Source: Oscillospiraceae bacterium (GTDB lineage Bacteria; Bacillota; Clostridia; Oscillospirales; Oscillospiraceae). From it: a stretch of 53,176 nucleotides of DNA. Below the pieces are notes generated by a model that worked only from the letters and a program-made list of their open reading frames with translations, was not told the DNA's origin and made no database searches. A program made the translations under genes and the position numbers. How positions within the stretch are numbered: the stretch's first letter is position 1; each line of letters begins with the position of its first letter. The stretch lies in assembly GCA_021442665.1 (NCBI GenBank), contig JABUSQ010000026.1, positions 1 through 53,176 on the forward strand, written 5' to 3'. This document shows, one piece after another, positions 3,156 to 48,655 of this stretch.

Positions 3156-3166
3156 AAGGAGCCTCC

Positions 3167-4249
3167 TCACATAAGCAAGAGCCAGCTGAGCAGATAACCG
3201 ACAACGGTGATACCCGCAGTCAGACCGCCGAACCAGCCCCAAAATCTGCCCTTGTCAATAGGTAGATCGCCGACAAATTTACCGGTCTGACCGTTCATGG
3301 CGAAGGTATATTTTTCGCCCTTCCAGGTGGTGTTGAGTATCCACACGGGGAAGAGGGCATATTTCGTCCTGCCGCCCGAAAACCGCACGCTGCTGTTCTC
3401 TGCGATGACGGTATCGTAGCGGGCGGAGACGGTGCCCCTGAAGGCGTATTCGGTGGAGGTCTTGATTCTCCCGTTCACCCGTTCTCTGTTTTCATCCGCT
3501 GTAACGTCGTATCGGTCGGCAAGATAGCCCGAAAGATAGGCGGTCTGGAAATCCACTGCCTCGGAATAATCAAAGGGCTCAAGGGACTCCATAAGGGTAT
3601 CGTCCATCTTCGAGGAGCCGTCGGCGGGGACATTTTCAAAATCAAGAGAGCCACTTCGGATGATGCTGTAGTGGCGGGTCTCGGTGTAGTTGTAGTCTCT
3701 GTCACTCCAGTGACGGGTGTCGGTGGCACGGAAACGGATTCGTGCGTCGGTGTGGGTATCGTAGAGCCAGAAGGGAACATAAACACCCTTGATCTCGTCT
3801 ATGCGGTTTTCGCTTTTGAAAACCCTGGGCAGAAGCCTTTTGCCCTCAAAATGCTGCCTCAGGGCGGCCTTGGCGTCCTCCTTGTCCAGCTTGAAGGGGA
3901 TGACGGCATCGGGACGCAAATCGCCCATGAGCTGACCCTTAACGATAACGGGGTTGCCGCAGTAGGGGCAGGAGCTCGCCGCGGTGGTAGCTTCGGCGAT
4001 AATTTCACCGGCACAGCTCTCACATACAAAGATACGCAGGCCCTCGCTTTCGCCCTCTTTCCAGGGTTTGCCCTCCTCATCCCAGCCCATGCTGTCCGGG
4101 CGGTCGTTTTTAAGCTCCTCATCGTAGTGACGCAGGGCCTCGACCTCGAACTCGGAGTCGCAGTATGGACATTTCATCTTCTGCGAATCGCTGTCGAAGC
4201 TGATGGCACCGCCGCAGCAGGGACACTTATACTCAAGAATCACACTCAT
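3167..4249 (-). CDS. Zinc-ribbon protein with C-terminal membrane anchor (YdjG-like)
   Basis: 360 aa. N-terminal CPCCG...CPYC and a second CESC...CPYCG zinc ribbon. C-terminal TM segment (FWGWFGGLTAGITVVGYLLSWLLL). GAGGAA RBS. Tightly packed between the SPFH and TPM genes. Confidence 0.55.
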   Translation of the reverse strand: MSVILEYKCPCCGGAISFDSDSQKMKCPYCDSEFEVEALRHYDEELKNDRPDSMGWDEEGKPWKEGESEGLRIFVCESCAGEIIAEATTAASSCPYCGNPVIVKGQLMGDLRPDAVIPFKLDKEDAKAALRQHFEGKRLLPRVFKSENRIDEIKGVYVPFWLYDTHTDARIRFRATDTRHWSDRDYNYTETRHYSIIRSGSLDFENVPADGSSKMDDTLMESLEPFDYSEAVDFQTAYLSGYLADRYDVTADENRERVNGRIKTSTEYAFRGTVSARYDTVIAENSSVRFSGGRTKYALFPVWILNTTWKGEKYTFAMNGQTGKFVGDLPIDKGRFWGWFGGLTAGITVVGYLLSWLLLM

Positions 4250-25321: not shown

Positions 25322-25468
25322 GGTCAGTATTCCTTTCGACAACTTAATTTTGCTTTAACTTAACTTATATAAGCTTAATATAAAGCAACGTTTGTAAATT
25401 GTCAACATTCATTTCCAAAATTACGGTTTTTCGGCTAAATTCATATTTTTACTAACCTCACTTTGTGC

Positions 25469-28100: not shown

Positions 28101-28988
28101 TCACATGAGTATTTTGGGGCTGAGACGGGTGTTGACGGTCTCTTCGCATTGGCTCACAAGAGCGGCAGCTCTGGTGGCGGCATCGGCTGTTTCAGCCAGA
28201 GACAGGCCCTGCACGCCCGACCAGACAATGGCAGAGATGGCGGCGTCGCCGCAGCCCGTGGTGTTGACGACGTTGGTTTTCATGCAGGGCAGCTTTACGA
28301 TCTCGCCGTCCTCGACGGCAAGCAGGCCCTCGCTGCCCAGAGTGACGAACACCCGTTTAACGCCCTTTCTCAACAGAGCCTCCGCGGCTAACAGAGCGGA
28401 TCTTTCTCCAGTTATGCCCAGAGCCTCAATCTCATTGGGCTTGAGGGCGGTTAGCCTGTCTATGATAGGCAGCAGTCTGTGAGCCTTGGCACGGGACACG
28501 GTATCCGCATACAGAGGGACGGTGACGTTTGCACCTATCCATTTAAGTGCCTCCTCGGAGAGATTGGCCTCCACGACTACGGCGTCGGCGGAGTTGAGCT
28601 CATCCTTCAGCAGAGTGAGGTACTCGGGGCTGATGTACGCAGCGATATCGGAATCGCAGGCGGCGAGGAGCATTTCGCCCTTTTCGTCGGTGATGTACAT
28701 ATAGGTGGAGGTCTTTCCACCCTTCACACGCCGGGCGAGACTCATATCAATGCCCAGCTCCTTGCAGCTTCTCATGACGCCGGCGCCGAAGTCGTCATCA
28801 CCGACGGCGGTGACGAGCTTCACGTTCAGATCCAGCAGACGAAGGTTGTGAGCGATGTTTCTTCCGACACCGCCGGGGACTGTGGTGACGGCAGCGGGAT
28901 TTGAATCCTTCATGGCGGGAGCCTTGAAGGGACGTCCGCAGATGTCCATGTTCACGGCTCCGACAACGATTACGGTTTTATTTTCCAT
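28101..28988 (-). CDS. PfkB-family carbohydrate/nucleoside kinase
   Basis: 295 aa. VVGAVNMDI, GGVGRNIA and the C-terminal NTTGCGDA motif. It overlaps the glgP 3' end by 19 nt. Confidence 0.8.
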   Translation of the reverse strand: MENKTVIVVGAVNMDICGRPFKAPAMKDSNPAAVTTVPGGVGRNIAHNLRLLDLNVKLVTAVGDDDFGAGVMRSCKELGIDMSLARRVKGGKTSTYMYITDEKGEMLLAACDSDIAAYISPEYLTLLKDELNSADAVVVEANLSEEALKWIGANVTVPLYADTVSRAKAHRLLPIIDRLTALKPNEIEALGITGERSALLAAEALLRKGVKRVFVTLGSEGLLAVEDGEIVKLPCMKTNVVNTTGCGDAAISAIVWSGVQGLSLAETADAATRAAALVSQCEETVNTRLSPKILM

Positions 28989-31375
28989 ATATTATCGGCG
29001 TATTCCCTGACGGCACGGTCGGCGGCGAAGATTCCGCTCTGAGCAGTGTTCACCAGAGAGAGGCGGGCAAGCTCCGCGTCGTCAGAGATGACGGAATAGA
29101 GCCTGTCGTGGGTGAGAACGTAATCACGGTAGTCGGCGATGAGCATATAAGGGTCGCCCTTGTAGAGCAGGTCGGAGACAAGGTCGGAGTAGCTCTTGCC
29201 GTCAGAGAAGCCGGCGGAGAAGCGGTTCAGCACCTCCGTGAGCTCCGGGTCGCTGCGGGACATGGCAAGAGGATCGTAGCCGTTTTGCTTGAGGGCTATG
29301 ACCTCCTCCGCACGGAGACCGAAGAGGAACATGTTTCTGTCTCCAAGACGCTCGTACATCTCAACGTTTGCGCCGTCCAGCGTGCCGATGGTGACGGCTC
29401 CGTTGAGCATGAGCTTCATGTTGCCGGTACCGGAGGCCTCCTTGCCTGCAGTGGATATCTGCTGGGAGATCTGAGCGGCGGGCATGAGAGCCTCTGCGGC
29501 GGACACACGGTAGTTTTCGAGGAAATATACCTGCAGCTTACCCTTGCACAGAGGATCGTTGTTGACGTCCTTTGCCAGAGAGCAGATGAGCTCTATTATC
29601 CGTTTGGCGGTGCGGTAGCCGGCGGCTGCCTTTGCGCCGAAGACGAAGGTGCGGGGCTTGAACTCCGCATTGGGGTAGCAGTGGATAAACATCTGCAGAC
29701 GGGTTATGAGCATGGCGCAGAGAAGCTGACGCTTATACTCGTGCAGACGCTTCACCTGAACATCCACGATGGCGTCGGTGTTGAGCATGAAGCCGTCGTT
29801 TTTCATAGCGAAGTCCGCAAAATCCTCTTTATTGAGCTGCTTTATCGCCAGAACCACCTTCTGAACATCGGATTCCTCGGAGAAATCCGCCAGTTTTATG
29901 AGCTCCTCGGGGCGGGTGAGGAAGTCCTCGCTGCCCAGCAGCTCTGCAGTGAGAGAGTGGAGACGGGGGTTTATCTGAGACAGCCATCGGCGGTGGTCGA
30001 TGCCGTTCGTAACATAGGTAAAGCGCTCGGGACGCAGCTCATTGATGTCCCGGAACAGGTCGTTTTTCAGAATCTCGCCGTGGAGACCGGAGACGCCGTT
30101 GACCTTGTAACAGGCGGCAAGACATAGATTTGCCATGTGGACCTGACCGCCCCTGATTATAAGGTTGCGGCCGACCTTTTCGGTGTTGCCGAAGCAGTCC
30201 ACCAGATAATCGCACCAGCGGCGGTTTATCTCACAGAGAATCTCCCACACTCTGGGGAGAAGCTGCTGAACAAGCTCCTGAGGCCATTTTTCCAGTGCCT
30301 CGCTCATGACGGTGTGGTTTGTATATGCCACTGCCCCGGTGACTACGCTCCATGCCTCGTCCCAGCCGAGACCGTGCTCGTCCATGAATATGCGCATGAG
30401 CTCGGGGATGACGAGGGTGGGATGAGTATCGTTTATCTGAATAACATGGTGCTCGGCAAAGCTCGAAATATCTCCGTACTCGGCGATGTGCTTTTTGACG
30501 ATGGTCTGCACCGTGGCGGAAACGAAGAAATACTGCTGCTTGAGGCGCAGAGTCTTACCCTCAATGTGGTCGTCGGCGGGGTAAAGCACCTTGGTAATGA
30601 CCTCGCTCATGGTGCGCTGCTCCATGCTTTTGACATATTCGCCCTCGGAGAAGAGGTACATATCAAGGGCGCTGGTGCTGCGGGCGTCCCAGAGCCTCAG
30701 AGTATTTACGGTCTTTCCGCCGAAGCCGGCAATGAGCATATCTCTGGGTACGGCGGTGACGGTGGTGTAGCCCGTGTGCTCAGCGTGGTAGCGTCCGAAA
30801 TAGTCCCAACGGGGAGTTATCTGACCGCCGAAGCGGATTTCCACGGCGTCCTCGTTGCGGGGGATAAGCCAGCTTTCGGAGCTTTTGCGCCAGTCGTCCG
30901 CAAGCTCTGTCTGCCTGCCGTCCTGAAATTTCTGACGGAAGATGCCCAACTCGTAACAGATGGAATAGCCTGTTGCAGGAATACCCAGAGACGCCATGCT
31001 GTCCATGTAGCAGGCGGCGAGACGGCCCAGACCGCCGTTGCCGAGACCCGCGTCGTTCTCCGCCTCGAAGATGTCTGAGGCGTTGCGCCCCATGTCCTCC
31101 AATGCTCCGGTGAGAGCATCGGAAATGCCGAGGTTGAAGGCGTTTTTCATGAGGCTTCTGCCCATGAGGAATTCCATGGACATATAGTGCACCTCACGGC
31201 GGTCGTGACGGGGAGCCTCCGCTGCCATCAGTCGGCTCATTATCTCACGAATGACCATGGCGCCGGCCTGAAATACCTGGTCGTCGGTGGCTTTTTCGCT
31301 TGTTATGCCGAAGTGGGCGCAGAGCTTATCCTCTATTGCGCTGCGGACTTCGTCACGGGAGATTTCACTTCTCAT
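28970..31375 (-). CDS. glgP: Glycogen/alpha-glucan phosphorylase
   Basis: 801 aa. Pyridoxal-phosphate Lys motif EASGTGNMKLMLNGA. GLGNGGLGRLAAC near the N-terminus. Confidence 0.9.
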   Translation of the reverse strand: MRSEISRDEVRSAIEDKLCAHFGITSEKATDDQVFQAGAMVIREIMSRLMAAEAPRHDRREVHYMSMEFLMGRSLMKNAFNLGISDALTGALEDMGRNASDIFEAENDAGLGNGGLGRLAACYMDSMASLGIPATGYSICYELGIFRQKFQDGRQTELADDWRKSSESWLIPRNEDAVEIRFGGQITPRWDYFGRYHAEHTGYTTVTAVPRDMLIAGFGGKTVNTLRLWDARSTSALDMYLFSEGEYVKSMEQRTMSEVITKVLYPADDHIEGKTLRLKQQYFFVSATVQTIVKKHIAEYGDISSFAEHHVIQINDTHPTLVIPELMRIFMDEHGLGWDEAWSVVTGAVAYTNHTVMSEALEKWPQELVQQLLPRVWEILCEINRRWCDYLVDCFGNTEKVGRNLIIRGGQVHMANLCLAACYKVNGVSGLHGEILKNDLFRDINELRPERFTYVTNGIDHRRWLSQINPRLHSLTAELLGSEDFLTRPEELIKLADFSEESDVQKVVLAIKQLNKEDFADFAMKNDGFMLNTDAIVDVQVKRLHEYKRQLLCAMLITRLQMFIHCYPNAEFKPRTFVFGAKAAAGYRTAKRIIELICSLAKDVNNDPLCKGKLQVYFLENYRVSAAEALMPAAQISQQISTAGKEASGTGNMKLMLNGAVTIGTLDGANVEMYERLGDRNMFLFGLRAEEVIALKQNGYDPLAMSRSDPELTEVLNRFSAGFSDGKSYSDLVSDLLYKGDPYMLIADYRDYVLTHDRLYSVISDDAELARLSLVNTAQSGIFAADRAVREYADNIWKIKP

Positions 31376-31396
31376 ACAATATACCTTTCGGGATAA

Positions 31397-32509
31397 TCAG
31401 ATTTTGCTGAATTTAGGCACCACAAGAGGCAAAGCGGGAGAGCCTGCAAGGGTCTGATCCGCACCGATGGTGACGTATTTGTCCACGATGCAGTTTGTCA
31501 GACAGACGTTCTCGCCTATCTCGCAGCCTCGCATGAGGATGCAGTTTTTAAGCTTTGCGCCCTTGCCTATACGCACGCCGGAGAAGATAACGGAGTTTAT
31601 TACCTCTCCTTCAACCATGCAGCCGTCGGAAATGAGGCTGTTTCTGGATACGGCGCTCTCGCTGTAATAGGTGCTCACATCCTCGTGGCTCTTGGTGCGC
31701 ACGGGTCTCTCCACGGGGAAGAGGTCGGCACGAACCTCGGGGCGTAGGCTTTCCATGCTGCTGCGGAAGTAACTTTCCGTGCTCATGATACGCTTGGCGT
31801 AGCCGTTATGCATGTAGATATTCACCCTACCGCCGCCTTCAAGATAATTTGCGATGGCGTCACGATGGAAGTGATGTTTATTTTCGGTGTAGCAGTAATC
31901 CATGAGCTTCAGCAGCAGCTCCTTGGATACTATGTATGCCTCCAGAGAGGCGATGCCCTCGCCCGCCTCATAGCGGTTGAATACCATCCTGCGGGCAAAG
32001 CCGTCCGCGTCGGGAACGAAGCGGTGGTGACGGTATTCGGGAGTGGTGTCGGTGCAGATGGCTGTAAGCTCTGCCTCGCTCTTCTTGTGGTTTCTGAGAG
32101 CGGCCTCAAGGTCGATGTTTCCGGCAAGGTTGCCCTGCATCATGACCACGGTGTCTTCTTTTATGTCTTCAATGTAGGTCCTTACACCGTTCAATGCCTC
32201 CATTGTACCGCTGTAGTTGCCGTTGTGATATTCGGGCAAACCGAAGGGGGGAAGCATTCTCAGACCGCCCATTCTTCTGCCCATATCCCAATCCTTGCCG
32301 CTGCCCAGATGATCCAGCAGGGACTGGTAATCTCTCTGCATGATGACGCCCACATTGTGAATGCCTGCGTTCATGAGGGAGGAGAGCGCAAAGTCGATGA
32401 GTCTGTATCTGCCGCAGTAGGGGATGGAGGCGGCGGTACGGTTGCGAACCAGCTCGGTGAGATTGGGGGTTGCGCCGTAGGCGTAGATTATTCCGTGAAC
32501 ATTGACCAT
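31397..32509 (-). CDS. glgD: Glucose-1-phosphate adenylyltransferase regulatory subunit GlgD
   Basis: 370 aa, paralogous to GlgC but lacking the GGxGxRL motif. Contains GRYRLIDFALSSLMNAG. It lies directly downstream of glgC, as in Firmicutes. Confidence 0.85.
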   Translation of the reverse strand: MVNVHGIIYAYGATPNLTELVRNRTAASIPYCGRYRLIDFALSSLMNAGIHNVGVIMQRDYQSLLDHLGSGKDWDMGRRMGGLRMLPPFGLPEYHNGNYSGTMEALNGVRTYIEDIKEDTVVMMQGNLAGNIDLEAALRNHKKSEAELTAICTDTTPEYRHHRFVPDADGFARRMVFNRYEAGEGIASLEAYIVSKELLLKLMDYCYTENKHHFHRDAIANYLEGGGRVNIYMHNGYAKRIMSTESYFRSSMESLRPEVRADLFPVERPVRTKSHEDVSTYYSESAVSRNSLISDGCMVEGEVINSVIFSGVRIGKGAKLKNCILMRGCEIGENVCLTNCIVDKYVTIGADQTLAGSPALPLVVPKFSKI

Positions 32510-32513
32510 TTGC

Positions 32514-33707
<1,194 letters not shown>

Positions 33708-39609: not shown

Positions 39610-41082
39610 ATGAAAGACTTGAAATGGTACGAGGAGATGGAGGCACGCATCCCAAGAGGAGAGGTGCGTACACGCTTTGCTCCCAGCCCTACGGGATATA
39701 TGCATGTCGGTAATCTGCGCACCGCTCTGTACACCTGGCTCATCGCCCGCCACGCCGGAGGAAAATTCATTCTCCGAATAGAGGACACGGATCAGGGCAG
39801 ACTGGTGGAGGGCGCCGTGGACGTCATCTACCGCACTCTGGCGGAATGCGGACTTGACCACGATGAGGGTCCCGATGAGGGCGGTCCCGTAGGCCCCTAT
39901 ATCCAGACCGAGAGAAGACCGCTGTATGCGGAATATGCAGACCTGCTGGTGGAAAAGGGCTTTGCCTATCGTTGCTTCTGTGAGAAAAACGAAGACGAGG
40001 AGCCTGCCGGCTTTGAAAAGACCGCCGACCCATGCCGTTTCATGACAAAGGCCGAGTCCGATGCAAGAGCCGCCGCAGGCGAGCCCTATGTCATTCGCCA
40101 GAGGATACCCGAGGAGGGCAGCACCACCTTCCGTGACGAGATATTCGGCGACATCACCGTGGAGAACAAGACGCTGGACGATCAGGTGCTCATAAAGAGG
40201 GACGGGCTTCCCACCTACAACTTCGCAAACGTGGTGGACGACCACCTCATGGGAATAACCCACGTCGTCAGAGGCAGCGAATATCTCTCCTCCTCCCCCA
40301 AATACAACCTGCTGTACGAGAGCTTCGGCTGGGATGTCCCCGCCTATGTCCACTGTTCGCCGGTCATGCGTGATCAGCACAACAAGATGAGCAAGCGTCA
40401 CGGCGATCCCTCCTACGAGGACCTTATCGCCGGAGGCTACATCACCGACGCTGTGGTGAATTATGTCGCTCTGCTGGGCTGGAGCCCCGGAGGAGAGCGA
40501 GAGGTCTACTCCATGCAGGAGTTGGCGGAGTGCTTTGAGCTCAAGGGTCTCAGCAAGTCCCCCGCGATTTTCGATATTGAAAAGTTAAAGTTTTTTAACG
40601 CTGAATATATCCGTGCCATGAGTCCCGAAAAATTTGCGGAGCTGGCGGAGCCCTTCATAAGAAAAGCTGTGAAGAATCCGGAAATCGACGCATCTGCCGT
40701 GGCGGCACTGCTTCAGCAGCGCACGGAGGTGCTTAACGACATCCCAGAAAAGCTGGACTTCTTTGACGTTCTGCCCGAATACGACACATCACTGTTCGTG
40801 CACAAGAAGAGCAAGACCGACGAGGCAGGCTCTCTTGATATGCTGAGGAAGCTGCTCCCGGTCTTTGAGTCCGTGGAGGATTGGTGCGATGATAGCATCC
40901 TTGCCGTCATGACGGATATGGCGGAGAAGGAGGGCTGCAAGAACGCCAAGGTCATGTGGCCCGTGCGCATTGCCGTGGCGGGCAAGGCGGTAACTCCCGG
41001 CGGAGCCGTGGAGATATGCCGGATACTGGGCAAGGCAGAGAGCCTGCGCCGCATGAACATCGCCATCGAAAAGCTGTCATAA
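39610..41082 (+). CDS. gltX: Glutamate--tRNA ligase
   Basis: 490 aa. RFAPSPTGYMHVGNLRTAL (HIGH) and KMSKRHG (KMSKS). GGAGG RBS. Confidence 0.9.
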   Translation: MKDLKWYEEMEARIPRGEVRTRFAPSPTGYMHVGNLRTALYTWLIARHAGGKFILRIEDTDQGRLVEGAVDVIYRTLAECGLDHDEGPDEGGPVGPYIQTERRPLYAEYADLLVEKGFAYRCFCEKNEDEEPAGFEKTADPCRFMTKAESDARAAAGEPYVIRQRIPEEGSTTFRDEIFGDITVENKTLDDQVLIKRDGLPTYNFANVVDDHLMGITHVVRGSEYLSSSPKYNLLYESFGWDVPAYVHCSPVMRDQHNKMSKRHGDPSYEDLIAGGYITDAVVNYVALLGWSPGGEREVYSMQELAECFELKGLSKSPAIFDIEKLKFFNAEYIRAMSPEKFAELAEPFIRKAVKNPEIDASAVAALLQQRTEVLNDIPEKLDFFDVLPEYDTSLFVHKKSKTDEAGSLDMLRKLLPVFESVEDWCDDSILAVMTDMAEKEGCKNAKVMWPVRIAVAGKAVTPGGAVEICRILGKAESLRRMNIAIEKLS

Positions 41083-41086
41083 ATTA

Positions 41087-41130
41087 AACCGCTCCTTTTG
41101 GTTAAAATAAGCCAAAAGGAGCGGTTTTTA
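41087..41130 (+). terminator. Intrinsic terminator after gltX
   Basis: 15-bp stem aaccgctccttttgg / ccaaaaggagcggtt with a 10-nt loop, followed by ttta. Confidence 0.7.
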
Positions 41131-41187
41131 TGAAGCTTAGAAAGCAAATATCCGAAGCGAATAATCGCAGGAATTCACAGAAAAAGT

Positions 41188-41213
41188 GATAAATGTGATT
41201 GATAAATGTGATT
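41188..41213. repeat. Perfect tandem duplication of a 13-mer (GATAAATGTGATT x2)
   Basis: Read directly: 41188-41200 and 41201-41213 are identical. It lies in an AT-rich spacer between the gltX terminator and the 3' end of srtB. Confidence 0.8.
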
Positions 41214-41253
41214 ATTAAATATTTATTGTAATATCATCAGATAGTAGTATAAT

Positions 41254-41985
41254 CTAACTGACAACATCGGTCAGCACCGCATATACCGCATAGCGGTAAT
41301 CGGGATTGACCCAGCAGGTGGCAAGGCTAAGAATCCTGTCGTCTGCTGTGACTTGGACATCCCTGTCCTGCACGAGATTACCCGCAGACAGCACGGCATT
41401 AAGATATCGCCGGCAGCTATCGGGGTCTGAATTGTCGCACAGTGAGAGAATGTGCCTGTTGCTGACGATGCGGCTGGCGAATACCTTATAAATTAACTCT
41501 CTGTCGGGGAGGTATATCCTCACTGTCTGATGCCCGAAAAAGAACTCCCCGTCCTCGTACCTGTGAAGGTCTGCGAACATGGTCCCGGCTCTCATGTTAT
41601 GACCGTAGATGACGGTGTTGAAGTCGGAAAAATCGGGGCTGTTGAAGCTCTCGATATAGATGCTGCCCGCCTTATCCTCCCTGCCGCGGAAATCGGTGTT
41701 CAGGTACTTGGAGTTGTCCTCGGGACAGCAGAGGATGGGGTAGTCGATCTCCGTGCCGTCTATGCATATCCAGCCGACGACCTCGGGATTTACAGCCCTG
41801 AGCGCCTCAAAATCAACGGGAGAGACGTAGCCTGCCTCCACGGGCGGAGCCGTGACCTCCGGTGCGGCTTTGAATTCCTCCGCCGACGGAGCCTTACGCA
41901 TATATGACCCTGCAATAAGAATAACGCAGACGGCGAATATCACCGCACAGACGCACAGTACAGCTATTGAGATTCTTTTACGCAT
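41254..41985 (-). CDS. srtB: Class B sortase
   Basis: I placed the start at ATG 41985 (MRKRISIAVLCVCAVIFAVCVILIA, TM anchor), which has a GGGAGG RBS. VVGWICIDGTEIDYPILC, SKYLNTDF, GSIYIE, the His motif VIYGHNMRAGTMFADLHRY, and the catalytic Cys in LSLATCW. Confidence 0.85.
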   Translation of the reverse strand: MRKRISIAVLCVCAVIFAVCVILIAGSYMRKAPSAEEFKAAPEVTAPPVEAGYVSPVDFEALRAVNPEVVGWICIDGTEIDYPILCCPEDNSKYLNTDFRGREDKAGSIYIESFNSPDFSDFNTVIYGHNMRAGTMFADLHRYEDGEFFFGHQTVRIYLPDRELIYKVFASRIVSNRHILSLCDNSDPDSCRRYLNAVLSAGNLVQDRDVQVTADDRILSLATCWVNPDYRYAVYAVLTDVVS

Positions 41986-42032
41986 GATATCGCCTCCCGG
42001 GAAGATTATACACAGAAAACGGAAACGGAGCA

Positions 42033-43022
42033 ATGAGAAAAATCAAAAATGCCGTCATTTTAATATTGCTTCCCATGCTTTGCATCCTCGCCTCTCTGAT
42101 GGTGGGCAGGTATTCCATGAGCCTGCGGGAGATATTCGACACTCTGCTGTTGCCAGCGGCAGCGGACATCGAGCACTACCGAGTGGTGTGGTATCTTCGC
42201 CTGCCCCGCTCGGTGGCTGCCGCAATGTGCGGAGCAGCTCTGGCGGTGTCGGGTGCAGCCTTTCAGGGAGTGTTCCGAAACCCTCTTGTGAATTCCGGGC
42301 TGCTGGGTGTTTCCAACGGCGCAGGCTTCGGTGCCTGCGTCGCCATAATATTTCTCGGCGGAGGAACTTTCACCTATATTCTCTCCTTCGCCTTTGCGGT
42401 GCTGGCAGTGGCGATGAGCTGGTTTGCCGGGAGAGTGAGCCGGGTGACTACCTCGGTCACCCTCATTCTGGGCGGTGTCATAGTATCGAGCTTTTTCAGC
42501 GCACTCATATCCGTCATGAAATTCATGGCTGACCCCTACAGTCAGCTTCCGAGTATAACCTTCTGGTTTATGGGAAGCTTTGCCTCCGTAAACTATGTGC
42601 ATTTTTATTCCTTTATCCCCATGACACTTGGGATGCTGCTGATATATCTGTCCCGCTGGCGGATAAACGTGCTGTCCATGGGCGACAGGGAGGCCGCAGC
42701 TCTGGGTGTGGACGTGAAGCGGTATAAATTCCTGATTGTGGGCGGAGCGACGCTGGCTACCGCCTCGGCAGTGTGCATAAGCGGAACTATCGGCTGGGTG
42801 GGCCTTGTGGTACCGCACATCGGCAGGATGATAGTGGGCAACAATAATGTGAAGCTAATTCCCGTAAGCATGTCTCTGGGGGCCTGCTTCCTCACGGTGA
42901 TGGACATACTCTCTCGCAATCTGAGCACCGCGGAGCTGCCCATCGGCATTCTCTGTGCGCTTGTGGGCACGCCCTTCTTCGTGTATCTGCTGAAGAAGAC
43001 GAAGGGAGGCGGCTGGACATGA
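42033..43022 (+). CDS. FecCD/BtuC-family chelate ABC importer permease
   Basis: 329 aa, about 9-10 TM segments. RLPRSVAAAMCGAALAVSGAAFQGVFRNPL and GTIGWVGLVVPHIGR are typical FecCD motifs. Confidence 0.85.
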   Translation: MRKIKNAVILILLPMLCILASLMVGRYSMSLREIFDTLLLPAAADIEHYRVVWYLRLPRSVAAAMCGAALAVSGAAFQGVFRNPLVNSGLLGVSNGAGFGACVAIIFLGGGTFTYILSFAFAVLAVAMSWFAGRVSRVTTSVTLILGGVIVSSFFSALISVMKFMADPYSQLPSITFWFMGSFASVNYVHFYSFIPMTLGMLLIYLSRWRINVLSMGDREAAALGVDVKRYKFLIVGGATLATASAVCISGTIGWVGLVVPHIGRMIVGNNNVKLIPVSMSLGACFLTVMDILSRNLSTAELPIGILCALVGTPFFVYLLKKTKGGGWT

Positions 43023-43807
43023 TACTTGAGGTGAGAGAGCTTAGCTTTTCCTACGGAAAAAGTGAGGCGCTGAAGAATGTGAGCCTCGGTCTCAGCGCCG
43101 GTGAGATACTCTGTGTCATGGGACCCAACGGCAGCGGCAAAAGCACCCTCATAGACAGCATCATGGGCATACATAAGCCCGCCTCGGGCAGCATTCTGCT
43201 CTCCGGCAGAGAGCTGCGCAGCTATTCCCGGCAGGAGCTGGCAAGACAGGCGTCCTATGTTCCCCAGAACCACAGCGTCACCTTCCCCTACACCGTCCGT
43301 GAGGCGGTGATGATGGGACGCACCGCCTACGTCTCCGCCTTCGGTGAGCCTCCCGAATCCGATGGGGTGTTTGCCGAGGACGCCATGAAACGTGTGGGCA
43401 TCTCGGAGCTTGCGGACAAAAGCTACGGGGGAATATCCGGCGGCGAGCTTCGCCTTGTTCTGTTGGCGAGGGCGCTGTGTCAGGGCTCTCCGCTGATGCT
43501 CATGGACGAGCCGACGGCGCATCTTGACTACCGCAATGAGCTAAGATTTCTGGAGACCGTCCGCTCTCTTGCCATTGAGGACGGCAAGGCGGTGCTCATA
43601 TCAACCCACTCACCCGTGCATGCCTTCTATTTTGCTTCCCGGGGAGTACCCACCGGGGCGATATTTCTCAAAAAAGGTGCCGTTGCGGCTCGGGGAGAGC
43701 CCGACGACATAATCACAGCCGAGCTTCTGGAGGAGGTCTACGGAGTCCGTGCCCGTATTCTTGAGAGCGACGGCGAAAAAACCGTACTGCTGCAAAACTC
43801 TCTGTGA
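43019..43807 (+). CDS. Chelate-type ABC importer ATP-binding protein
   Basis: Walker A GPNGSGKST, signature ISGGELRL and Walker B LMLMDEP. ATGA overlap with the permease gene. Confidence 0.9.
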   Translation: MILEVRELSFSYGKSEALKNVSLGLSAGEILCVMGPNGSGKSTLIDSIMGIHKPASGSILLSGRELRSYSRQELARQASYVPQNHSVTFPYTVREAVMMGRTAYVSAFGEPPESDGVFAEDAMKRVGISELADKSYGGISGGELRLVLLARALCQGSPLMLMDEPTAHLDYRNELRFLETVRSLAIEDGKAVLISTHSPVHAFYFASRGVPTGAIFLKKGAVAARGEPDDIITAELLEEVYGVRARILESDGEKTVLLQNSL

Positions 43808-43816
43808 GGTGATATT

Positions 43817-44899
43817 ATGAAAAGAAAACTAACGGCGCTGCTTATCATACTCTGCATGGTGCTGACCCTGCTGTGCGGCTGCGCACCGGAGGCTCCCGAC
43901 GGGAGCGGCGAAACGGTGAGCATAACAGACTGCGCAGGCAGAACGGTGGAGGTGCCGAAGGATCCCCGCTCTATCTGCTGCATATGCCCGTTTTCGGGAG
44001 CTATGATAGTGATGTTCGGCTTCGGAGACCGACTTACGACCTCCTGCAATAACATGGTGCGGAGCAGGCTGCTTACAAATATATGCCCTGCCATTGCCGA
44101 CACCGTGGTGGTGAAAAACAGCGGCAGTGTCAACGCCGAGACGGTGCTGGAGAAGAAAACCGACCTGATCTTCGTCAACGACGGGACCTATGAGACCGAT
44201 GACGAGCGGGCGAAGCTGGACGCACTTGGCATACCCTATGTGGTGGTGGGCTTCACCGACCTTGCAGGTCAGATGGAGGCCATGATGGTCATCGGACGGG
44301 CTCTCGGCGCCGAGGACAAGGCACAGAGCTACGTTGACTGGTGCAGGGGAGTGTATGCCGATGTTCAGGAAAAGCTTGAGGGTGCGGACACTGCATCTGT
44401 GCGGCTGTATCACGCCGTGAACGAGGCAACCCGTACCGATTACAGAGGAAGCATCTGCGCAGAATGGATAGCCATGACCGGGGTCACCAACGTCTCTCTT
44501 GACGGGGAGCTCAGCATGGAGAATGACAAGGCGTATGTGTCTCTGGAGCAGGTGTATTCATGGGCGCCGCAGATGATGATATGCAACGAACCCGGCGTGG
44601 ACGAATATATAATGTCCGACGGCAAATGGGCGGGATTGGAGTGCGTCCTCAGCGGCAGAGTGTATCAGATGCCCGTGGGCATCAGCCGCATGGGGCATCC
44701 AACCAGCACGGAGACGCCGCTTGCCCTGATTTGGCTTGCAAATCTTCTCTGTCCCGAGCTTTATCCCGTGGATTACCCGCAGGTGCTGAAGGATTATTAC
44801 AGGGATTTCTACGGCTATGAGCTTGATGACGAAACTGTGCAGGCGATAATAAGCGCCGAGGATATGCGTGCGGAAAAGACCAATTCGTCCGTGGAGTGA
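43817..44899 (+). CDS. Lipoprotein substrate-binding protein (periplasmic binding protein type 2, chelate class)
   Basis: 360 aa. Signal plus lipobox LTLLCGC. The ITDCAGRTVEVPKDPRSI start is typical of FepB/BtuF-like binding proteins. The protein is unusually Cys-rich. Confidence 0.8.
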   Translation: MKRKLTALLIILCMVLTLLCGCAPEAPDGSGETVSITDCAGRTVEVPKDPRSICCICPFSGAMIVMFGFGDRLTTSCNNMVRSRLLTNICPAIADTVVVKNSGSVNAETVLEKKTDLIFVNDGTYETDDERAKLDALGIPYVVVGFTDLAGQMEAMMVIGRALGAEDKAQSYVDWCRGVYADVQEKLEGADTASVRLYHAVNEATRTDYRGSICAEWIAMTGVTNVSLDGELSMENDKAYVSLEQVYSWAPQMMICNEPGVDEYIMSDGKWAGLECVLSGRVYQMPVGISRMGHPTSTETPLALIWLANLLCPELYPVDYPQVLKDYYRDFYGYELDDETVQAIISAEDMRAEKTNSSVE

Positions 44900-44902
44900 A
44901 AT

Positions 44903-45628
44903 ATGAAAATACTGATTTGCATTGACGATACCGATAATCTTGACAGCATCGGCACGGGTCAGCTTCTGGAGGACCTCTGCGCCGAGCTGGAGAACAGGGG
45001 ACTTGCGAAGGGTGGCTTTGTCACCCGGCATCAGCTCCTGATACATGAGGATATAGAATACACCTCCCACAACAGCTCCATGTGCTGTGAGGCGGAGACG
45101 GAGAGATTTGAGGAAGCCGTGTCCGCCGCCCGGGAGTATCTTGCAAAGCATTCGGCGGAGGGCAGCGACCCGGGTATCTGCGTGCTGAGGCTCGATACCG
45201 CAGCAGACATAGAGAAGCTCCGTGAGTTCGGCCGCAGAGCCCAGACGGAGGTGCTGAAAAAATCCGAGGCATACGAGACAGCGGCACTGTTTCCCGGGAG
45301 CCTCTGTCTGTCCGAGCACGGCGGCACCGGTGACGGTGTTATAGGAGCTCTTGCGGGAGTAGGGCTTCGCCTTACCGGCGAGGACGGCAGAGTCAAGGGA
45401 AAGATTCGCCCGAGGAAAGAGGACGAGGTGCTGACGGCGGCGGATTTCTGCTCTGTCTACAGTGTGGAGCAGATAGTCACCGAGGACGGAGAGCTTCTCA
45501 GCGGGGACGCCGTGCTGCATTTTTCCGAGCCCACCAAGGCGGTGTTCAGAGACAATAAGGTCACGCTGACAGTTCTGCGGGGCGATGGCTTTTGGATACC
45601 CAGACCGCACAGAGGGAATAAAAAATGA
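44903..45628 (+). CDS. Stand-alone protein resembling the N-terminal kinase (TCKD) domain of archaeal TiaS; function unknown
   Basis: 241 aa. MKILICIDDTDNLDSIGTG (IDDTD, Thr at position 18), GFVTRHQLL...IEYTSHNSS, DPGICV and GDGVIGALAGVG parallel the TiaS blocks as I remember them. It starts 4 nt after the binding-protein stop. Confidence 0.45.
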   Translation: MKILICIDDTDNLDSIGTGQLLEDLCAELENRGLAKGGFVTRHQLLIHEDIEYTSHNSSMCCEAETERFEEAVSAAREYLAKHSAEGSDPGICVLRLDTAADIEKLREFGRRAQTEVLKKSEAYETAALFPGSLCLSEHGGTGDGVIGALAGVGLRLTGEDGRVKGKIRPRKEDEVLTAADFCSVYSVEQIVTEDGELLSGDAVLHFSEPTKAVFRDNKVTLTVLRGDGFWIPRPHRGNKK

Positions 45629-45840
45629 GCGTCTGGGAAAAGGGAAAGCGGGGCATGCTCTTCACCAGCGGAAGAGAGGCCACCGGCACTGCTGCGGAGG
45701 AGGCGGAAAAATGCGAAAATTTTTCTCGGGATTATGAAGAGGAATGCTTTGCATTCGAGGATGTAAGCTGTTATAATTGCAGATACAGAAGATGGACCCG
45801 GGACAGCTTCGAGTGTATGAACAGGGAGAAAATGATATGA
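45625..45840 (+). CDS. Cys-rich 71-aa protein of unknown function
   Basis: ATGA overlaps at both ends (45625-45628 and 45837-45840). Five Cys residues, including CYNC, in an acidic/aromatic context. AGAGGGA RBS. Confidence 0.5.
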   Translation: MSVWEKGKRGMLFTSGREATGTAAEEAEKCENFSRDYEEECFAFEDVSCYNCRYRRWTRDSFECMNREKMI

Positions 45841-46526
45841 AAAAGCTTGCGACACTTTCAGCAGTGATTGTTCTGATATTATCCTTGGGCACGGCAGCCC
45901 TTGCCGACGGTGACGGAGACGGCTCCGGAGGCGGAAGCGGAGAGCCCCTTATGCTGGCGGGCAGCTCCGTCGCAGACGGAAGCACAGGTATTTCAACGGA
46001 CGTATATATAACCCTGACCTTCTCCAAAAATGTGGTGAATTTCACCGTAAAGGACAACAATGCGGCATGCATCAGCCTTACGGATTCTGCGGGAGGCACC
46101 GTTCCCGTGAGCGTGGTCATGGGTGACGATCAGGTGGACCCCGGCATCAAGCGTATAATCGGCGTGCAGACAAGCGGACTTAAGGAGGGTGAGACCTACA
46201 CCCTGAACATCAGCGGAGCTCTTACCTCAAAGAGCGGAGTGAGCCTCGGCAGTCCCATAGCCATCAGCTTCACAACCGCAGAGGCCGCCGTCGCCGAGCC
46301 GGACGAACCCGTCAGCAGCGAAGACACTCCCGAGGACGCCGAGGAAATGACGGGGGAAGGAGAAGACATCCTTCTGATTACTAGTGCAGAGGGAGTGGAC
46401 GCAGAGCTTGTTATCGCTCCCGCGCCCGAAGCTCCGGCAGACAACACACTGTGGATAGTCAACGGCGTATGCGCAGCGGTGCTGCTTGCGGCTTATCTCG
46501 CAACAAGAAAAAACATACATAATTAA
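45837..46526 (+). CDS. Secreted Ig-like (Big_5/SbsA-like) domain protein with C-terminal hydrophobic anchor
   Basis: I placed the start at ATG 45837 (MKKLATLSAVIVLILSLGTAALA). DGDGDGSGGGSG tract, one Ig-like module (DVYITLTFSKNVV...ETYTLNISG...ISFTT), an acidic stalk and the tail LWIVNGVCAAVLLAAYLATRKNIHN. Confidence 0.7.
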   Translation: MKKLATLSAVIVLILSLGTAALADGDGDGSGGGSGEPLMLAGSSVADGSTGISTDVYITLTFSKNVVNFTVKDNNAACISLTDSAGGTVPVSVVMGDDQVDPGIKRIIGVQTSGLKEGETYTLNISGALTSKSGVSLGSPIAISFTTAEAAVAEPDEPVSSEDTPEDAEEMTGEGEDILLITSAEGVDAELVIAPAPEAPADNTLWIVNGVCAAVLLAAYLATRKNIHN

Positions 46527-46550
46527 TAAAAAAGAAAAGGAGAAACAGAC

Positions 46551-47138
46551 ATGAAAAAGACGCTTTCCGCAGTGCTCGCTCTCGTTCTGACAATTGCTTT
46601 GCTGGCGTGCCCCGTTCTGGCGGCAGGCGATGGGTCCGGCGGCGGCTCCGGCGGTGGTACAAAGCAGCTTCAGGTGGTATCCGTAACTCTGGACGGCGCA
46701 GCTCTTGAGGGCGCAGAGGCATCCGCCGACGGTGTTATCACCGTCACCTTCTCCAACGGCATGGCAGACAACAGCGAGGCAACCAAGACGCTCATCGCAG
46801 TAAAGAACGCCGGGGGCGAGGATATGATGGCAGCCGTCAGCTACGACCCCGCAGTGAAGAGCGACTTCGTCGTCAGCTTCAGCGGACTTGAGGCGGGTGC
46901 ATACACTCTGGTCATCGGTGCAGACGCCAAGGCCAACAACGGCACGACGCTGGGCAAGGACTATACCGTAAGCTTCACCGTAGCCGCAGGGGCGGAAGCA
47001 CCGGAGCCCGCTCCCGAGGTAAAGCCCGAGGATGAAGCTCCCGCCACCGGCGAAAGCAAAGCGGTGTTTGCGGTTGCTGCCGTTGCTCTTCTGGGCGTGT
47101 TCGGCGCAGCATGGAGCCTGAAAAAAGCGGAAGACTGA
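46551..47138 (+). CDS. Secreted Ig-like (Big_5/SbsA-like) domain protein with xPxTG-type cell-wall sorting signal
   Basis: 195 aa. Signal peptide with a possible lipobox LLAC, a GDGSGGGSGGG tract and an Ig-like module (VITVTFSNGM...AYTLVIGA...VSFTV). APATG (47037-47051) is followed by a hydrophobic segment and KKAED. Confidence 0.7.
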   Translation: MKKTLSAVLALVLTIALLACPVLAAGDGSGGGSGGGTKQLQVVSVTLDGAALEGAEASADGVITVTFSNGMADNSEATKTLIAVKNAGGEDMMAAVSYDPAVKSDFVVSFSGLEAGAYTLVIGADAKANNGTTLGKDYTVSFTVAAGAEAPEPAPEVKPEDEAPATGESKAVFAVAAVALLGVFGAAWSLKKAED

Positions 47139-47163
47139 CAGCAGATAAATACATTAAAAGCTT

Positions 47164-47199
47164 AAAACGGCAGCACGCATGGCGCGCTGCCGCTTTTTT
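47164..47199 (+). terminator. Intrinsic terminator closing the ABC/surface-protein operon
   Basis: Stem cggcagc / gctgccg with an 11-nt loop, followed by cttttttc. Confidence 0.55.
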
Positions 47200-47317
47200 C
47201 GCCCGCCTGACGACTTAAATCTCAGAATTTATCATATTTGACTGCACCGGAAACGAAAAAACATGAAAAATTTTAAGCTTGCGACTTAAATTCGGCATAA
47301 TTTGGTATACAAGCATC

Positions 47318-47346
47318 TTGAAATGTACATTTTTCTCTGATAGAAT
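47318..47346 (+). promoter_or_regulatory. Candidate sigma-A promoter for galK-galT
   Basis: TTGAAA (47318-47323), a 17-nt spacer, then TAGAAT (47341-47346). It lies 32 nt upstream of the galK ATG. Confidence 0.45.
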
Positions 47347-47377
47347 ACCTTAAACATCAGAATCGGAGGAAGTGTAC

Positions 47378-48655
47378 ATGAAATATACTTTTGCCTCTCG
47401 AATAAAATCAGGGGAGACCGATGCTGCACTCTCTTACCTCTACGGCAAAAGAAATGCGGAAAGAGCCCGTGAAAGGTGCCTTCGCCTTTCAGCGGACTTT
47501 GAAAATATTTTCGGCTGCGAGCCGGAGGCGATATTCAGTGCACCGGGACGCTCGGAGCTGGGCGGAAATCACACCGACCACCAGTGCGGTCATGTGTTGG
47601 CGGCGGCTGTTGATCTTGACATACTTGCGGCGGTGAAGCCCAACGGCAGCGGAGTCATCCGTATGAAGTCCGAGGGCTACCCCATGATAACCGTGGATAC
47701 CGAGAGCCTCACTCCCGTTAAGAGAGAGGAGGCGACCTCCGAGGCACTGGTCAGAGGCGTTGCCTCCGCCTTTGCCGAAAAGGGAGTGGACATGAGCCGC
47801 TCGGGCTTTGACGCCTGCCTTGTGTCCGATGTCCCCGGCGGCAGCGGGCTGAGCTCCTCGGCGGCGTTTGAAATCCTTGTGGGAACCATATTCAACGAGC
47901 TGTATTTCGGCTCGACGGTTTCTCCCGTGGAGCTTGCAAAGATAGGTCAGAGGGCTGAGAATGTGTATTTCGGCAAGCCCTGCGGACTCATGGATCAGAT
48001 AGCCTGCTCCGTGGGAGGAGTTGCCGCGGTTGACCTGAAGGACCCTGCCGTACCGGTGGTGGAGAAGATAGATCTTGAGCTGGATTCTCTGGGCTACGCC
48101 CTGTGCATCATGGACTCCCACGCCAGCCATGCAGACCTCACCGACGAATACGCCGCCATTGCGGGAGAGATGGCTGCCGTGAGCCGCCACTTCGGAAAGC
48201 GCTTTCTGCGGGAGGTGCCCGAGGCGGATTTCCTTGCGGAGCTCAGCTCCGTAAGAGCCGAGACCGGGGACAGAGCCCTGCTCCGTGCGATGCATTTTTA
48301 CTCCGATGACAAGCTTGCGGTTTCAGAGGCGGAGTCTCTAAAAAACGGGGATTTTGACGGATTTCTCCGGCTCGTGAAGGAGTCGGGAAAATCATCTGCC
48401 ATGTACCTGCAGAATGTCGTTCCCACAGGTCACACGGAGGATCAGGCACTGATGCTGACGGTGGCACTGGCTGAGCGACTGCTGCTAGGCAGAGGTGCCG
48501 CCCGGGTACACGGCGGAGGCTTTGGAGGAACGGCACAGGCATATGTGCCGCTGGACATGCTGAATTCCTTCATAGAGGGCATGGAGGCTCTCCTGGGCGA
48601 GGGCAGCGTTCATGCTGTCCGTATCCGTCCCGTCGGAGGATACCGCATTATATAA
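47378..48655 (+). CDS. galK: Galactokinase (GHMP kinase)
   Basis: I placed the start at ATG 47378, with a GGAGG RBS 8 nt upstream. APGRSELGGNHTDHQ and the GHMP motif PGGSGLSSSAA. Confidence 0.9.
   Translation: MKYTFASRIKSGETDAALSYLYGKRNAERARERCLRLSADFENIFGCEPEAIFSAPGRSELGGNHTDHQCGHVLAAAVDLDILAAVKPNGSGVIRMKSEGYPMITVDTESLTPVKREEATSEALVRGVASAFAEKGVDMSRSGFDACLVSDVPGGSGLSSSAAFEILVGTIFNELYFGSTVSPVELAKIGQRAENVYFGKPCGLMDQIACSVGGVAAVDLKDPAVPVVEKIDLELDSLGYALCIMDSHASHADLTDEYAAIAGEMAAVSRHFGKRFLREVPEADFLAELSSVRAETGDRALLRAMHFYSDDKLAVSEAESLKNGDFDGFLRLVKESGKSSAMYLQNVVPTGHTEDQALMLTVALAERLLLGRGAARVHGGGFGGTAQAYVPLDMLNSFIEGMEALLGEGSVHAVRIRPVGGYRII

Follow-up and report, generated by a model that had tools for sequence, protein, structure and literature searches.

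A probable tungsten/molybdenum acquisition operon with a MolBC-A-type importer, Ig-like surface proteins and a TiaS-like enzyme in an Oscillospiraceae bacterium

What is imported by an operon in which a chelate-type ATP-binding cassette (ABC) transporter is encoded together with two Ig-like surface proteins and two uncharacterised cytoplasmic proteins, and next to a class B sortase? This question is raised by an eight-gene locus in a contig of 53,176 nucleotides from an Oscillospiraceae bacterium (GenBank assembly GCA_021442665.1, contig JABUSQ010000026.1), which is referred to below, in its full length, as the window. A preliminary description, made from the DNA sequence alone, regarded the locus as an Isd-like relay in which wall-anchored Ig-like receptors take the place of NEAT domains and feed a chelate importer. 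We consider it probable, although far from settled, that the locus is a tungsten/molybdenum acquisition operon organised around a MolBC-A-type (type II, FecCD-fold) ABC importer, because of the relationship of its permease and substrate-binding protein (SBP) to MolB and MolA, and because orthologous cassettes are linked to cofactor riboswitches and tungsten islands. The seven plus-strand genes form one operon, and the same gene string is present in dozens of unrelated genomes; the arrangement is not a matter of chance.

Subfamily of the importer

Gene identities in the window were obtained from a map of open reading frames (ORFs) and from Pfam and NCBIfam profile searches, and the permease and SBP were compared with the sequences of all solved structures in the PDB. 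The closest solved relative of the permease is HI1471 (MolB) of Haemophilus influenzae (2nq2_A; 234.7 bits, E 1.7e-68), as against about 146–147 bits for the heme permeases BhuU and HmuU, 144 bits for FhuB, and about 132 bits for BtuC. Judged by this comparison, the permease is assigned to the molybdate/tungstate importers of the MolB (HI1471) subfamily, and not to the heme, siderophore or B12 subfamilies. The SBP, whose translation shows a signal peptide and a lipobox ((L)LCGC), matches MolA (HI_1472; 3psa and 3psh) over residues 88–333 with 53.4 bits (E 2e-13), compared with 31 bits for FhuD2. Ranked above MolA are 4ovk (80.5 bits), 4hn9, and 4pag, all of them structural-genomics proteins without known ligand. 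As for the ATPase, comparison with solved ATPases, including HI1470/MolC (111 bits), does not distinguish the subfamilies. MolBC-A has been shown experimentally to be a type II importer with a binding protein that binds both molybdate and tungstate, and it contributes to molybdate uptake in vivo (PMC4031551). The importer in the window is best filed as a MolBC-A-type system, for which molybdate/tungstate transport is predicted.

The same comparison bears on a relay for heme or corrinoids of the Isd kind, with Ig-like receptors replacing NEAT domains. The position of SrtB beside a FecCD importer and anchored surface proteins agrees with such a relay, and NCBIfam models for BtuC, corrinoid and heme systems match the permease and ATPase, all of them far below their cut-offs. 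However, the heme and B12 permeases score 90–100 bits below MolB, searches with Pfam, NCBIfam and Rfam found no NEAT domain, heme oxygenase or cobalamin riboswitch at the locus, nearly all orthologous loci are without srtB, and the riboswitches that were found are all of type RF01055 and never of a cobalamin type. We regard the relay as very improbable, and as ligand-specific readings, cobalamin and heme were rejected because of the transporter subfamily and the type of riboswitch. What can be kept of the preliminary description is the operon with its surface-attached importer partners, whereas its use of Isd as a guide to the ligand gives way to the MolB subfamily, the riboswitches and the tungsten islands.

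Conservation and regulation of the cassette

By means of the TiaS-like gene, 85 loci were fetched, their ORFs called, and searched iteratively with the eight window proteins; marker and core counts cover 89 related loci (labelled L001 etc.). The conserved core over these 89 loci, which come from several phyla, consists of permease, ATPase, SBP, TiaS-like enzyme, Cys4 miniprotein, and one or two Big_5 proteins. In Firmicutes, the first five genes make up a nearly invariant string, with one or two Big_5 genes on its 3' side in rumen and gut Clostridia, while the Big_5 gene precedes the permease gene, or lies between the miniprotein and permease genes, in Alkalibacter, Desulfitobacterium, Thermincola, Phosphitispora, Sporotomaculum, Bacillus/Neobacillus, and Acetobacterium. 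Two Big_5 homologues that were chosen independently of the TiaS-like gene also adjoin FecCD, ATPase and SBP (MolBC-like) genes. The expected co-occurrence of ABC, TiaS-like and Big_5 genes is thus borne out, with synteny across many Clostridia and beyond, but it does not extend to srtB, which adjoins the cassette in just 4 of about 90 loci (the window, L002/L006 and L007). In these loci the identity of the TiaS-like protein to that of the window is 70% or more. Because srtB is limited to the window and its closest relatives, it is a lineage-specific addition outside the conserved core.

An Rfam search revealed the molybdenum/tungsten cofactor (Moco/Tuco) riboswitch RF01055 in L044, L052, L057 and L084, and a covariance model derived from these was applied to the remaining loci. 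RF01055 occurs on the cassette strand in 19 loci (L004, L005, L014, L027, L032, L044, L052, L057, L062, L064, L066, L069, L072, L074, L080, L082, L083, L084, and L089); 18 matches are confirmed at the Rfam gathering score, and the others stem from the model built on the Rfam matches. The riboswitch is mostly adjacent to, or just upstream of, the cassette; the distance is larger in L014, where the match lies downstream at about 7 kb, and in L057, where it lies upstream at about 5.5 kb. It lies directly before the first cassette gene in L027, L032, L044, L062, L069, L074, L084 (in tandem) and L089, between the Big_5 and permease genes in L004 and L005, directly before the TiaS-like/miniprotein pair in the Geobacter-type loci L066 and L072, and one to several genes upstream in L052, L057, L064, L080 and L083. 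In L084 (Sporotomaculum syntrophicum), the two tandem copies (3047–3428) stand ahead of a gene for an 837-residue multi-Big_5 protein that heads the cassette. RF01055 was also searched for in L075, L086, L087 and L088, and none was found. About 22 nt that are present in the two L027 copies are missing from 15 of the 17 aligned copies, and in the Rfam alignment the P3 stem is absent in L032 but present in L027. The P3-less form of RF01055 correlates with the tungsten cofactor (PMC2408646; PMC11725836).

Several of these loci lie in tungsten islands. In L027, which has the gene order of the window, the cassette is bordered by a TupCBA-like operon that has a riboswitch of its own, MogA/MoaB, a ThiF/MoeB-type gene, aldehyde:ferredoxin oxidoreductase (AOR), and ferredoxin. 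L066 and L072 contain AOR, MoeB, TupABC-like genes, MoeA and MoaC; L057 has FmdE, ModD (TIGR01334, 222.7 bits) and a TupA-like protein, which is also found in L083; and in L089 a ModA-family ABC system lies behind a second riboswitch. At least one molybdenum/tungsten marker is present within 10 kb in 25 of the 89 loci, and a marker or a riboswitch in about 36, where by a rough estimate of ours about 5% of random 20-gene neighbourhoods would be expected to hold either.

In Eubacterium limosum, an “Fe ABC” operon under a Tuco riboswitch (fetABC1) is induced by tungsten limitation (PMC11725836). If this operon is orthologous, its induction would fit feedback-controlled tungsten uptake at least as well as iron uptake. 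The proposal made for E. limosum is that of an iron-chelate importer merely co-regulated with tungsten-cofactor status, supplying tungstoenzymes rich in Fe–S clusters, and it agrees with Tuco riboswitches upstream of fetABC1/2 and a higher iron content in lactate-grown cells (PMC11725836). Most FecCD and Peripla_BP_2 systems are iron-chelate systems, and the TonB-dependent receptor in L045 gives its best scores with siderophore-receptor subfamily models. On the other hand, MolB is a far nearer relative of the permease than FhuB or the heme permeases are, the SBP is nearer MolA than FhuD2, and an OFF-type cofactor riboswitch combined with induction under tungsten limitation suits tungsten scavenging better. 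Furthermore, in L072 the TiaS-like/miniprotein pair stands alone behind its riboswitch in the tungsten island, with no adjacent ABC importer, and no Fur-type context is seen in the window. With these differences in mind, we give iron-chelate import only a small chance of being the function of the cassette.

Surface proteins and the cytoplasmic pair

The two Big_5 proteins in the window are paralogues, as had been proposed (36% identity over 185 residues), and their role as surface-attached partners of the type II (FecCD) importer is supported. The inner protein is composed of a signal peptide, a GDGSGGG-PL tract, the Big_5 domain, an acidic stalk, and a C-terminal transmembrane helix with a basic tail. 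A comparison of C-terminal tails shows that the inner-type orthologues likewise end in a hydrophobic helix followed by a Lys/Arg (KKK) tail, and that they have no sorting motif. The outer protein in the window ends with APATG, a hydrophobic segment and the tail KKAED; SPKTG occupies the corresponding position in L002, L006 and L007, the loci that retain srtB, and the outer-type tails of further loci contain SPQTG (L013), NPTTG (L001) or LPNTA (L049, a Bacillus). In other clades, attachment of the outer type is by SLH domains or by an amphipathic C-terminal helix. As for the sortase itself, its translation contains GTEIDYPILC and the His and Cys motifs VIYGHNM and LATCW, it scores just above the cut-off of TIGR03064 (155.7 versus 153.75 bits), and it matches Pfam Sortase (6e-13), which agrees with its earlier designation as class B.

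Wall anchoring had been considered for both Ig-like proteins. PADNT was rejected as a sorting signal of the first, since it is not conserved among the orthologues, and a sortase-type signal is consequently present in the second protein only. By its sequence, the first protein would not be a sortase substrate, whereas SrtB plausibly anchors the second via APATG (SPKTG in the closest relatives). The tail types support a two-layer arrangement at the surface, in which SrtB would act on the second protein alone. A tract of the form G-[DN]-G-[ST]-G-G-G-x-PL is found ahead of the Big_5 domain in 75 of 100 ORFs, and FxKN, NNxxCF, DDQ and SKSG are invariant in the inner Big_5 subfamily, a pattern that looks like a ligand site. 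Three inner-type homologues (P0295, P0298 and P0301) give EF-hand or dockerin matches in Pfam; these may cover the Gly/Asp tract that follows the signal peptide, and the tract could then be a calcium-binding loop and not a linker.

The TiaS-like enzyme belongs to a large family (over 4000 cluster representatives, each of them named “hypothetical”, with relatives in 531 of the species genomes scanned), and together with the miniprotein, which has no relative in Pfam, NCBIfam or the PDB, it is as uncharacterised as had been noted. The match to Pfam TiaS_TCKD is weak (22.5 bits versus a cut-off of 27; 1e-4), as is that to methan_mark_11 (methanogenesis-marker-11) of NCBIfam. The AlphaFold2 (AF2) model has a predicted local distance difference test (pLDDT) score of 89.5, and its top Foldseek matches, and only strong structural relatives, are the TiaS structures 4rvz, 3amt and 5xob (E about 1e-10 over about 200 columns). 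In the profile alignment to 3amt/4rvz, which spans residues 1–157, the invariant Asp8, Asp9, Thr10, Asp11 and Thr18 of the family align with the TiaS motif, and comparison of motifs and fold indicates that the ATP-binding/phosphotransfer core of TiaS is retained. The protein terminates at residue 241, ahead of the tRNA-binding OB and zinc-ribbon domains of TiaS. Because these domains are missing, the enzyme is not a TiaS.

The fold and motifs, together with the name tRNA(Ile2) agmatidine synthetase given to one homologue in UniRef, might indicate a bacterial enzyme that modifies tRNA or RNA and is carried in transporter operons as a passenger only. Against this speak the lack of the two tRNA-binding domains, an NCBIfam TiaS score of 25.7 bits where the cut-off is 600, and invariant synteny with importers across phyla, ATGA translational coupling and riboswitch control. 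Moreover, bacteria use TilS for the equivalent tRNA modification. A passenger of this kind is hardly to be expected.

The miniprotein follows the TiaS-like gene as 73 ORFs across the 85 loci, with the conserved pattern C...DxEDE...SCYNCRYRRWTxxSFxC and four invariant cysteines spaced C-x20-C-x2-C-x11-C. A remote search gave 83 representatives at 50% clustering, comprising stand-alone copies, fusions to the TiaS-like protein, and one protein of 5607 residues, and no other informative fusions. In the latter protein (P0367), the miniprotein is matched in 11 separate stretches (E 1e-9), and it is perhaps a Cys-repeat protein that has nothing to do with the cassette. Fusions of the TiaS-like protein and the miniprotein are found in L075 (9995–10903; Eubacterium sp.), Dehalobacter sp. 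DCM, Fusibacter, and many metagenomic proteins of about 290 residues (P0203 and P0121 among them). Because the two are often fused, they are expected to act together. In Desulfuromonadales, the operon that contains the pair also encodes a TonB-dependent receptor, a double ABC ATPase, a CbiQ-type T component, a small membrane protein, and ExbB/ExbD/TonB. Since the pair is found with ABC importers as well as with ECF-like/TonB importers, it follows the import of one class of substrate and not a type of transporter. A set resembling these ECF-like genes is present in L087 (15424–18871), about 5.5 kb downstream of the Dehalobacter cassette, and encodes an ABC_cobalt-family membrane protein with a faint Oxidored_molyb match, a double ATPase, and CbiQ.

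A mechanism can be proposed in which the two Big_5 proteins would form a capture layer for tungsten/molybdenum species at the cell surface, one of them held in the membrane by its C-terminal helix and the other attached to the wall, in this organism by SrtB via APATG. The captured species would be passed to the lipoprotein SBP and then to the permease/ATPase, and the TiaS-like enzyme would act with the Cys4 miniprotein in the cytoplasm, using ATP to process the imported metal species or to hand it over in a form usable for synthesis of the pyranopterin cofactor. Since TupABC is also encoded by many carriers, and since those that are Gram-negative employ a TonB-dependent receptor, the imported substrate is probably a scarcer or complexed form, and not the free oxyanion alone. 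It could be a metallophore complex, a pterin cofactor, or one of the thio-anions that are typical of sulfidic habitats. The pair in the cytoplasm is a serious candidate for biochemistry of a new kind. Tentatively, and with more doubt than conviction, we suggest for it a new ATP-dependent step in the supply of the tungsten/molybdenum cofactor, either conversion of a non-oxyanion species (e.g., thio-tungstate/thio-molybdate or a metallophore complex) to a form that MoeA can use, or salvage of a pyranopterin; the Big_5 proteins would then be the first Gram-positive surface receptors of this kind, equivalent to the TonB-dependent receptor of Desulfuromonadales.

Salvage can also be taken as the function of the cassette as a whole, which would then import Moco/Tuco, molybdopterin, a breakdown product or a precursor from neighbouring cells. 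Re-activation by the TiaS-like enzyme could involve phosphorylation of a dephosphorylated pterin, or activation of a ring carbonyl as performed by TiaS on cytidine. The evidence from riboswitches and islands applies equally to this alternative, a kinase-like enzyme suits an organic substrate better than an oxyanion, the carriers inhabit dense anaerobic communities, and the replacement of the ABC system in Desulfuromonadales by TonB-dependent receptors and ECF-type importers is typical of vitamins and cofactors; the ECF-like gene with its faint Oxidored_molyb match near the Dehalobacter cassette points in the same direction. In L052, L064, L056 and L071, a small lipoprotein of 156–175 residues with an Oxidored_molyb-like (pterin-binding) domain occupies the Big_5 position, in L052 (6504–6974) and L064 (6374–6901) between riboswitch and permease, and this substitution keeps the salvage reading alive. 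Against it, the nearest characterised relative of the transporter moves oxyanions, TupA-like oxyanion binders are encoded within some of the operons, and many carriers keep full sets of cofactor biosynthesis genes beside the cassette. In addition, a cofactor of the Moco/Tuco type is extremely labile, and we know of no description of bacterial uptake of a pyranopterin cofactor. We assign to pterin import, and to the salvage chemistry that goes with it, a low but appreciable probability.

Several observations also weigh against our preferred assignment of the locus to tungsten/molybdenum acquisition. The similarity between the SBP and MolA is modest as judged from sequence, with three closer solved relatives that lack a known ligand. 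A riboswitch accompanies only about 20% of the loci, and a riboswitch or marker about 40%. The window shows no RF01055 at the Rfam gathering score, and the leader is only 47 nt long; at E ≤ 1, an Rfam search over 40900–47500 yielded only two chance miRNA matches, on the gltX terminator. L002, L006 and L007 have no RF01055 and no molybdenum/tungsten marker within 10 kb, and the ORF map and profile scans of the 53-kb window disclosed no metal- or cofactor-related gene outside the locus. Because of this, a role in tungsten/molybdenum acquisition is attributed to the window by orthology at 45–60% identity. For the Cys4 partner, an AF2 model of a natural fusion to the TiaS-like protein gave pLDDT values below 50 for residues 253–292 and no confident Cys4 fold. 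We know of no biochemical precedent for a TCKD-type enzyme in metal or pterin metabolism. Finally, the sole published interpretation of FecCD transporters under Tuco control is that of iron uptake (PMC11725836).

Locus layout and comparison with known systems

Table 1. Features of the srtB–importer locus, in window coordinates
Feature	Position	Strand	Evidence
srtB, class B sortase	41254..41985	-	TIGR03064, Pfam Sortase, catalytic motifs; divergent from operon
47-bp divergent intergenic region with both ribosome-binding sites	41986..42032		Read from sequence; riboswitch-free
MolB-like type II ABC importer permease, FecCD fold	42033..43022	+	Pfam FecCD 9e-85; best solved match 2nq2_A
ABC ATPase	43019..43807	+	ABC_tran 1.7e-32; start overlaps permease stop (ATGA)
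Lipoprotein SBP, MolA-related branch of Peripla_BP_2	43817..44899	+	Peripla_BP_2 5e-14; signal peptide and lipobox
TiaS-TCKD-like ATP-utilising enzyme (predicted), 241 aa	44903..45628	+	Weak TiaS_TCKD match; predicted fold
Cys4 miniprotein, 71 aa	45625..45840	+	ORF without family match; conserved partner of TiaS-like gene
Inner Big_5 Ig-like protein	45837..46526	+	Big_5 2e-10
Outer Big_5 Ig-like protein with APATG	46551..47138	+	Big_5 1e-5; faint LPXTG-anchor matches
Intrinsic terminator at operon end	47166..47199	+	CGGCAGC...GCTGCCG stem, then TTTTTT

The eight genes lie where the preliminary description had placed them (Table 1), and its account of the layout holds throughout. The start codons of srtB (41985) and the permease gene (42033) are separated by the 47 bp reported for the divergent pair, each preceded by a GGAG-type ribosome-binding site. 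Within the seven-gene string, there are ATGA overlaps at 43019, 45625 and 45837 and gaps of 9, 3 and 24 nt, and a GC hairpin followed by six T residues closes what had rightly been taken for a single operon. Inside the miniprotein gene, a sigma-70-like site at 45748–45777 (+) (TTTGCA, 18 nt, TG-TATAAT; 10 of 12 matches) lies 60 nt upstream of the first Big_5 start, and is a candidate internal promoter for both surface-protein genes.

The neighbours of the locus are housekeeping genes (MraY-like, trpS, gltX, galK and galT). Elsewhere in the window, a secreted GH18 chitinase-like protein with several CBM5/12 modules is encoded at 29–2212 (+), and a glycogen gene set composed of a glucan phosphorylase and two ADP-glucose pyrophosphorylase-type subunits at 28970–33707 (-). 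Two paralogous fusions of Old-Yellow-Enzyme and pyridine-nucleotide-disulfide oxidoreductase domains, of the enoate-reductase type, are located at 10285–12348 (-) and 23441–25342 (-). The latter is within a stretch of lower GC content (about 47–50% over 20–28 kb) that also encodes a family III CoA-transferase, an aconitase-family protein, a citrate/dicarboxylate carrier and a LacI-type regulator.

There is growing recognition that tungsten enzymes (AOR/WOR, FDH) are important in anaerobes of the gut and rumen. Acquisition and processing of tungsten beyond TupABC are poorly known, and the cassette offers candidate genes for this gap, with three unannotated candidate families, namely the TiaS-like enzyme, the Cys4 miniprotein, and the Big_5 subfamily whose polar/Cys signature is invariant. 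If the proposed function is correct, the TiaS kinase fold extends from archaeal tRNA modification to bacterial metal-cofactor metabolism. It also follows for annotation that “iron” ABC transporters under tungsten-cofactor riboswitches may really be tungsten/molybdenum systems, and that FecCD and Peripla_BP_2 proteins encoded with sortase B should not by default be taken as heme or siderophore uptake. A search of the literature returned nothing relevant that links TiaS to the molybdenum cofactor, or tungstate to FecCD, and the combination of Big_5 proteins, a TCKD-type enzyme, its Cys4 partner and, in this lineage, sortase B appears undescribed in the literature searched.

Among characterised systems, MolBC-A of H. 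influenzae (HI1470/HI1471/HI1472) shares with the locus a FecCD-fold permease, an ABC ATPase, and a cluster-A SBP related to MolA. It coexists with a high-affinity oxyanion system, which is ModABC in H. influenzae, while TupABC or ModABC-like systems are found beside many of the cassettes, and a ModD gene is associated in one locus (L057). Unlike the operon in the window, MolBC-A operates in a Gram-negative periplasm, and is without Ig-like surface proteins, TiaS-like enzyme, Cys4 miniprotein, and sortase. A second point of reference is the Tuco/Moco regulon, where FecCD-type operons and TonB-dependent receptors are located directly behind RF01055 and beside AOR/WOR, TupABC and cofactor biosynthesis genes, although the leader in the window lacks the riboswitch. 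TonB-dependent channels near molybdopterin riboswitches have been noted in Pelobacter carbinolicus (PMC3543383). The transporters have been read as iron systems or as systems for an unidentified solute, with no mention of the TiaS-like, miniprotein and Big_5 genes (PMC11725836; PMC3543383).

As for archaeal TiaS, the tRNA(Ile2) agmatidine synthetase, the TiaS-like enzyme has in common with it an N-terminal TCKD fold followed by a small domain, and the motifs DDTD, Thr18, PY..N, (N/D)PG and G.G.IGALA. It differs in its length (241 versus about 420 residues), in the absence of the OB fold and the intrinsic zinc ribbon, and in its bacterial occurrence in importer operons, where a different Cys4 module is its partner or is fused to it. 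The sortase resembles SrtB of Clostridioides difficile, the substrates of which contain (S/P)PxTG. It is a class B enzyme by TIGR03064, and the neighbouring predicted substrate carries APATG in the window and SPKTG in the closest relatives. Unlike in C. difficile, position 1 of this predicted motif is Ala in the window, and the sortase is linked to a transporter operon.

In the Isd system of Staphylococcus aureus, srtB accompanies NEAT receptors and IsdEF, and a similar combination of sortase B, type II ABC importer and surface proteins at different envelope depths is seen in the window, where the sortase likewise appears to have a dedicated candidate substrate (APATG; SPKTG in the orthologues that retain srtB). 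Both secreted proteins match Big_5 only in Pfam, with no NEAT domain, and none of the eight genes codes for a heme oxygenase. The permease is nearer MolB than HmuU/BhuU, the sorting signal is (S/A)PxTG versus NPQTN, and srtB is dispensable in most lineages. Because NEAT domain and heme enzyme are absent and the permease is of a different subfamily, the locus is not an Isd system, and Isd is useful as an architectural analogy and not as a guide to the ligand.

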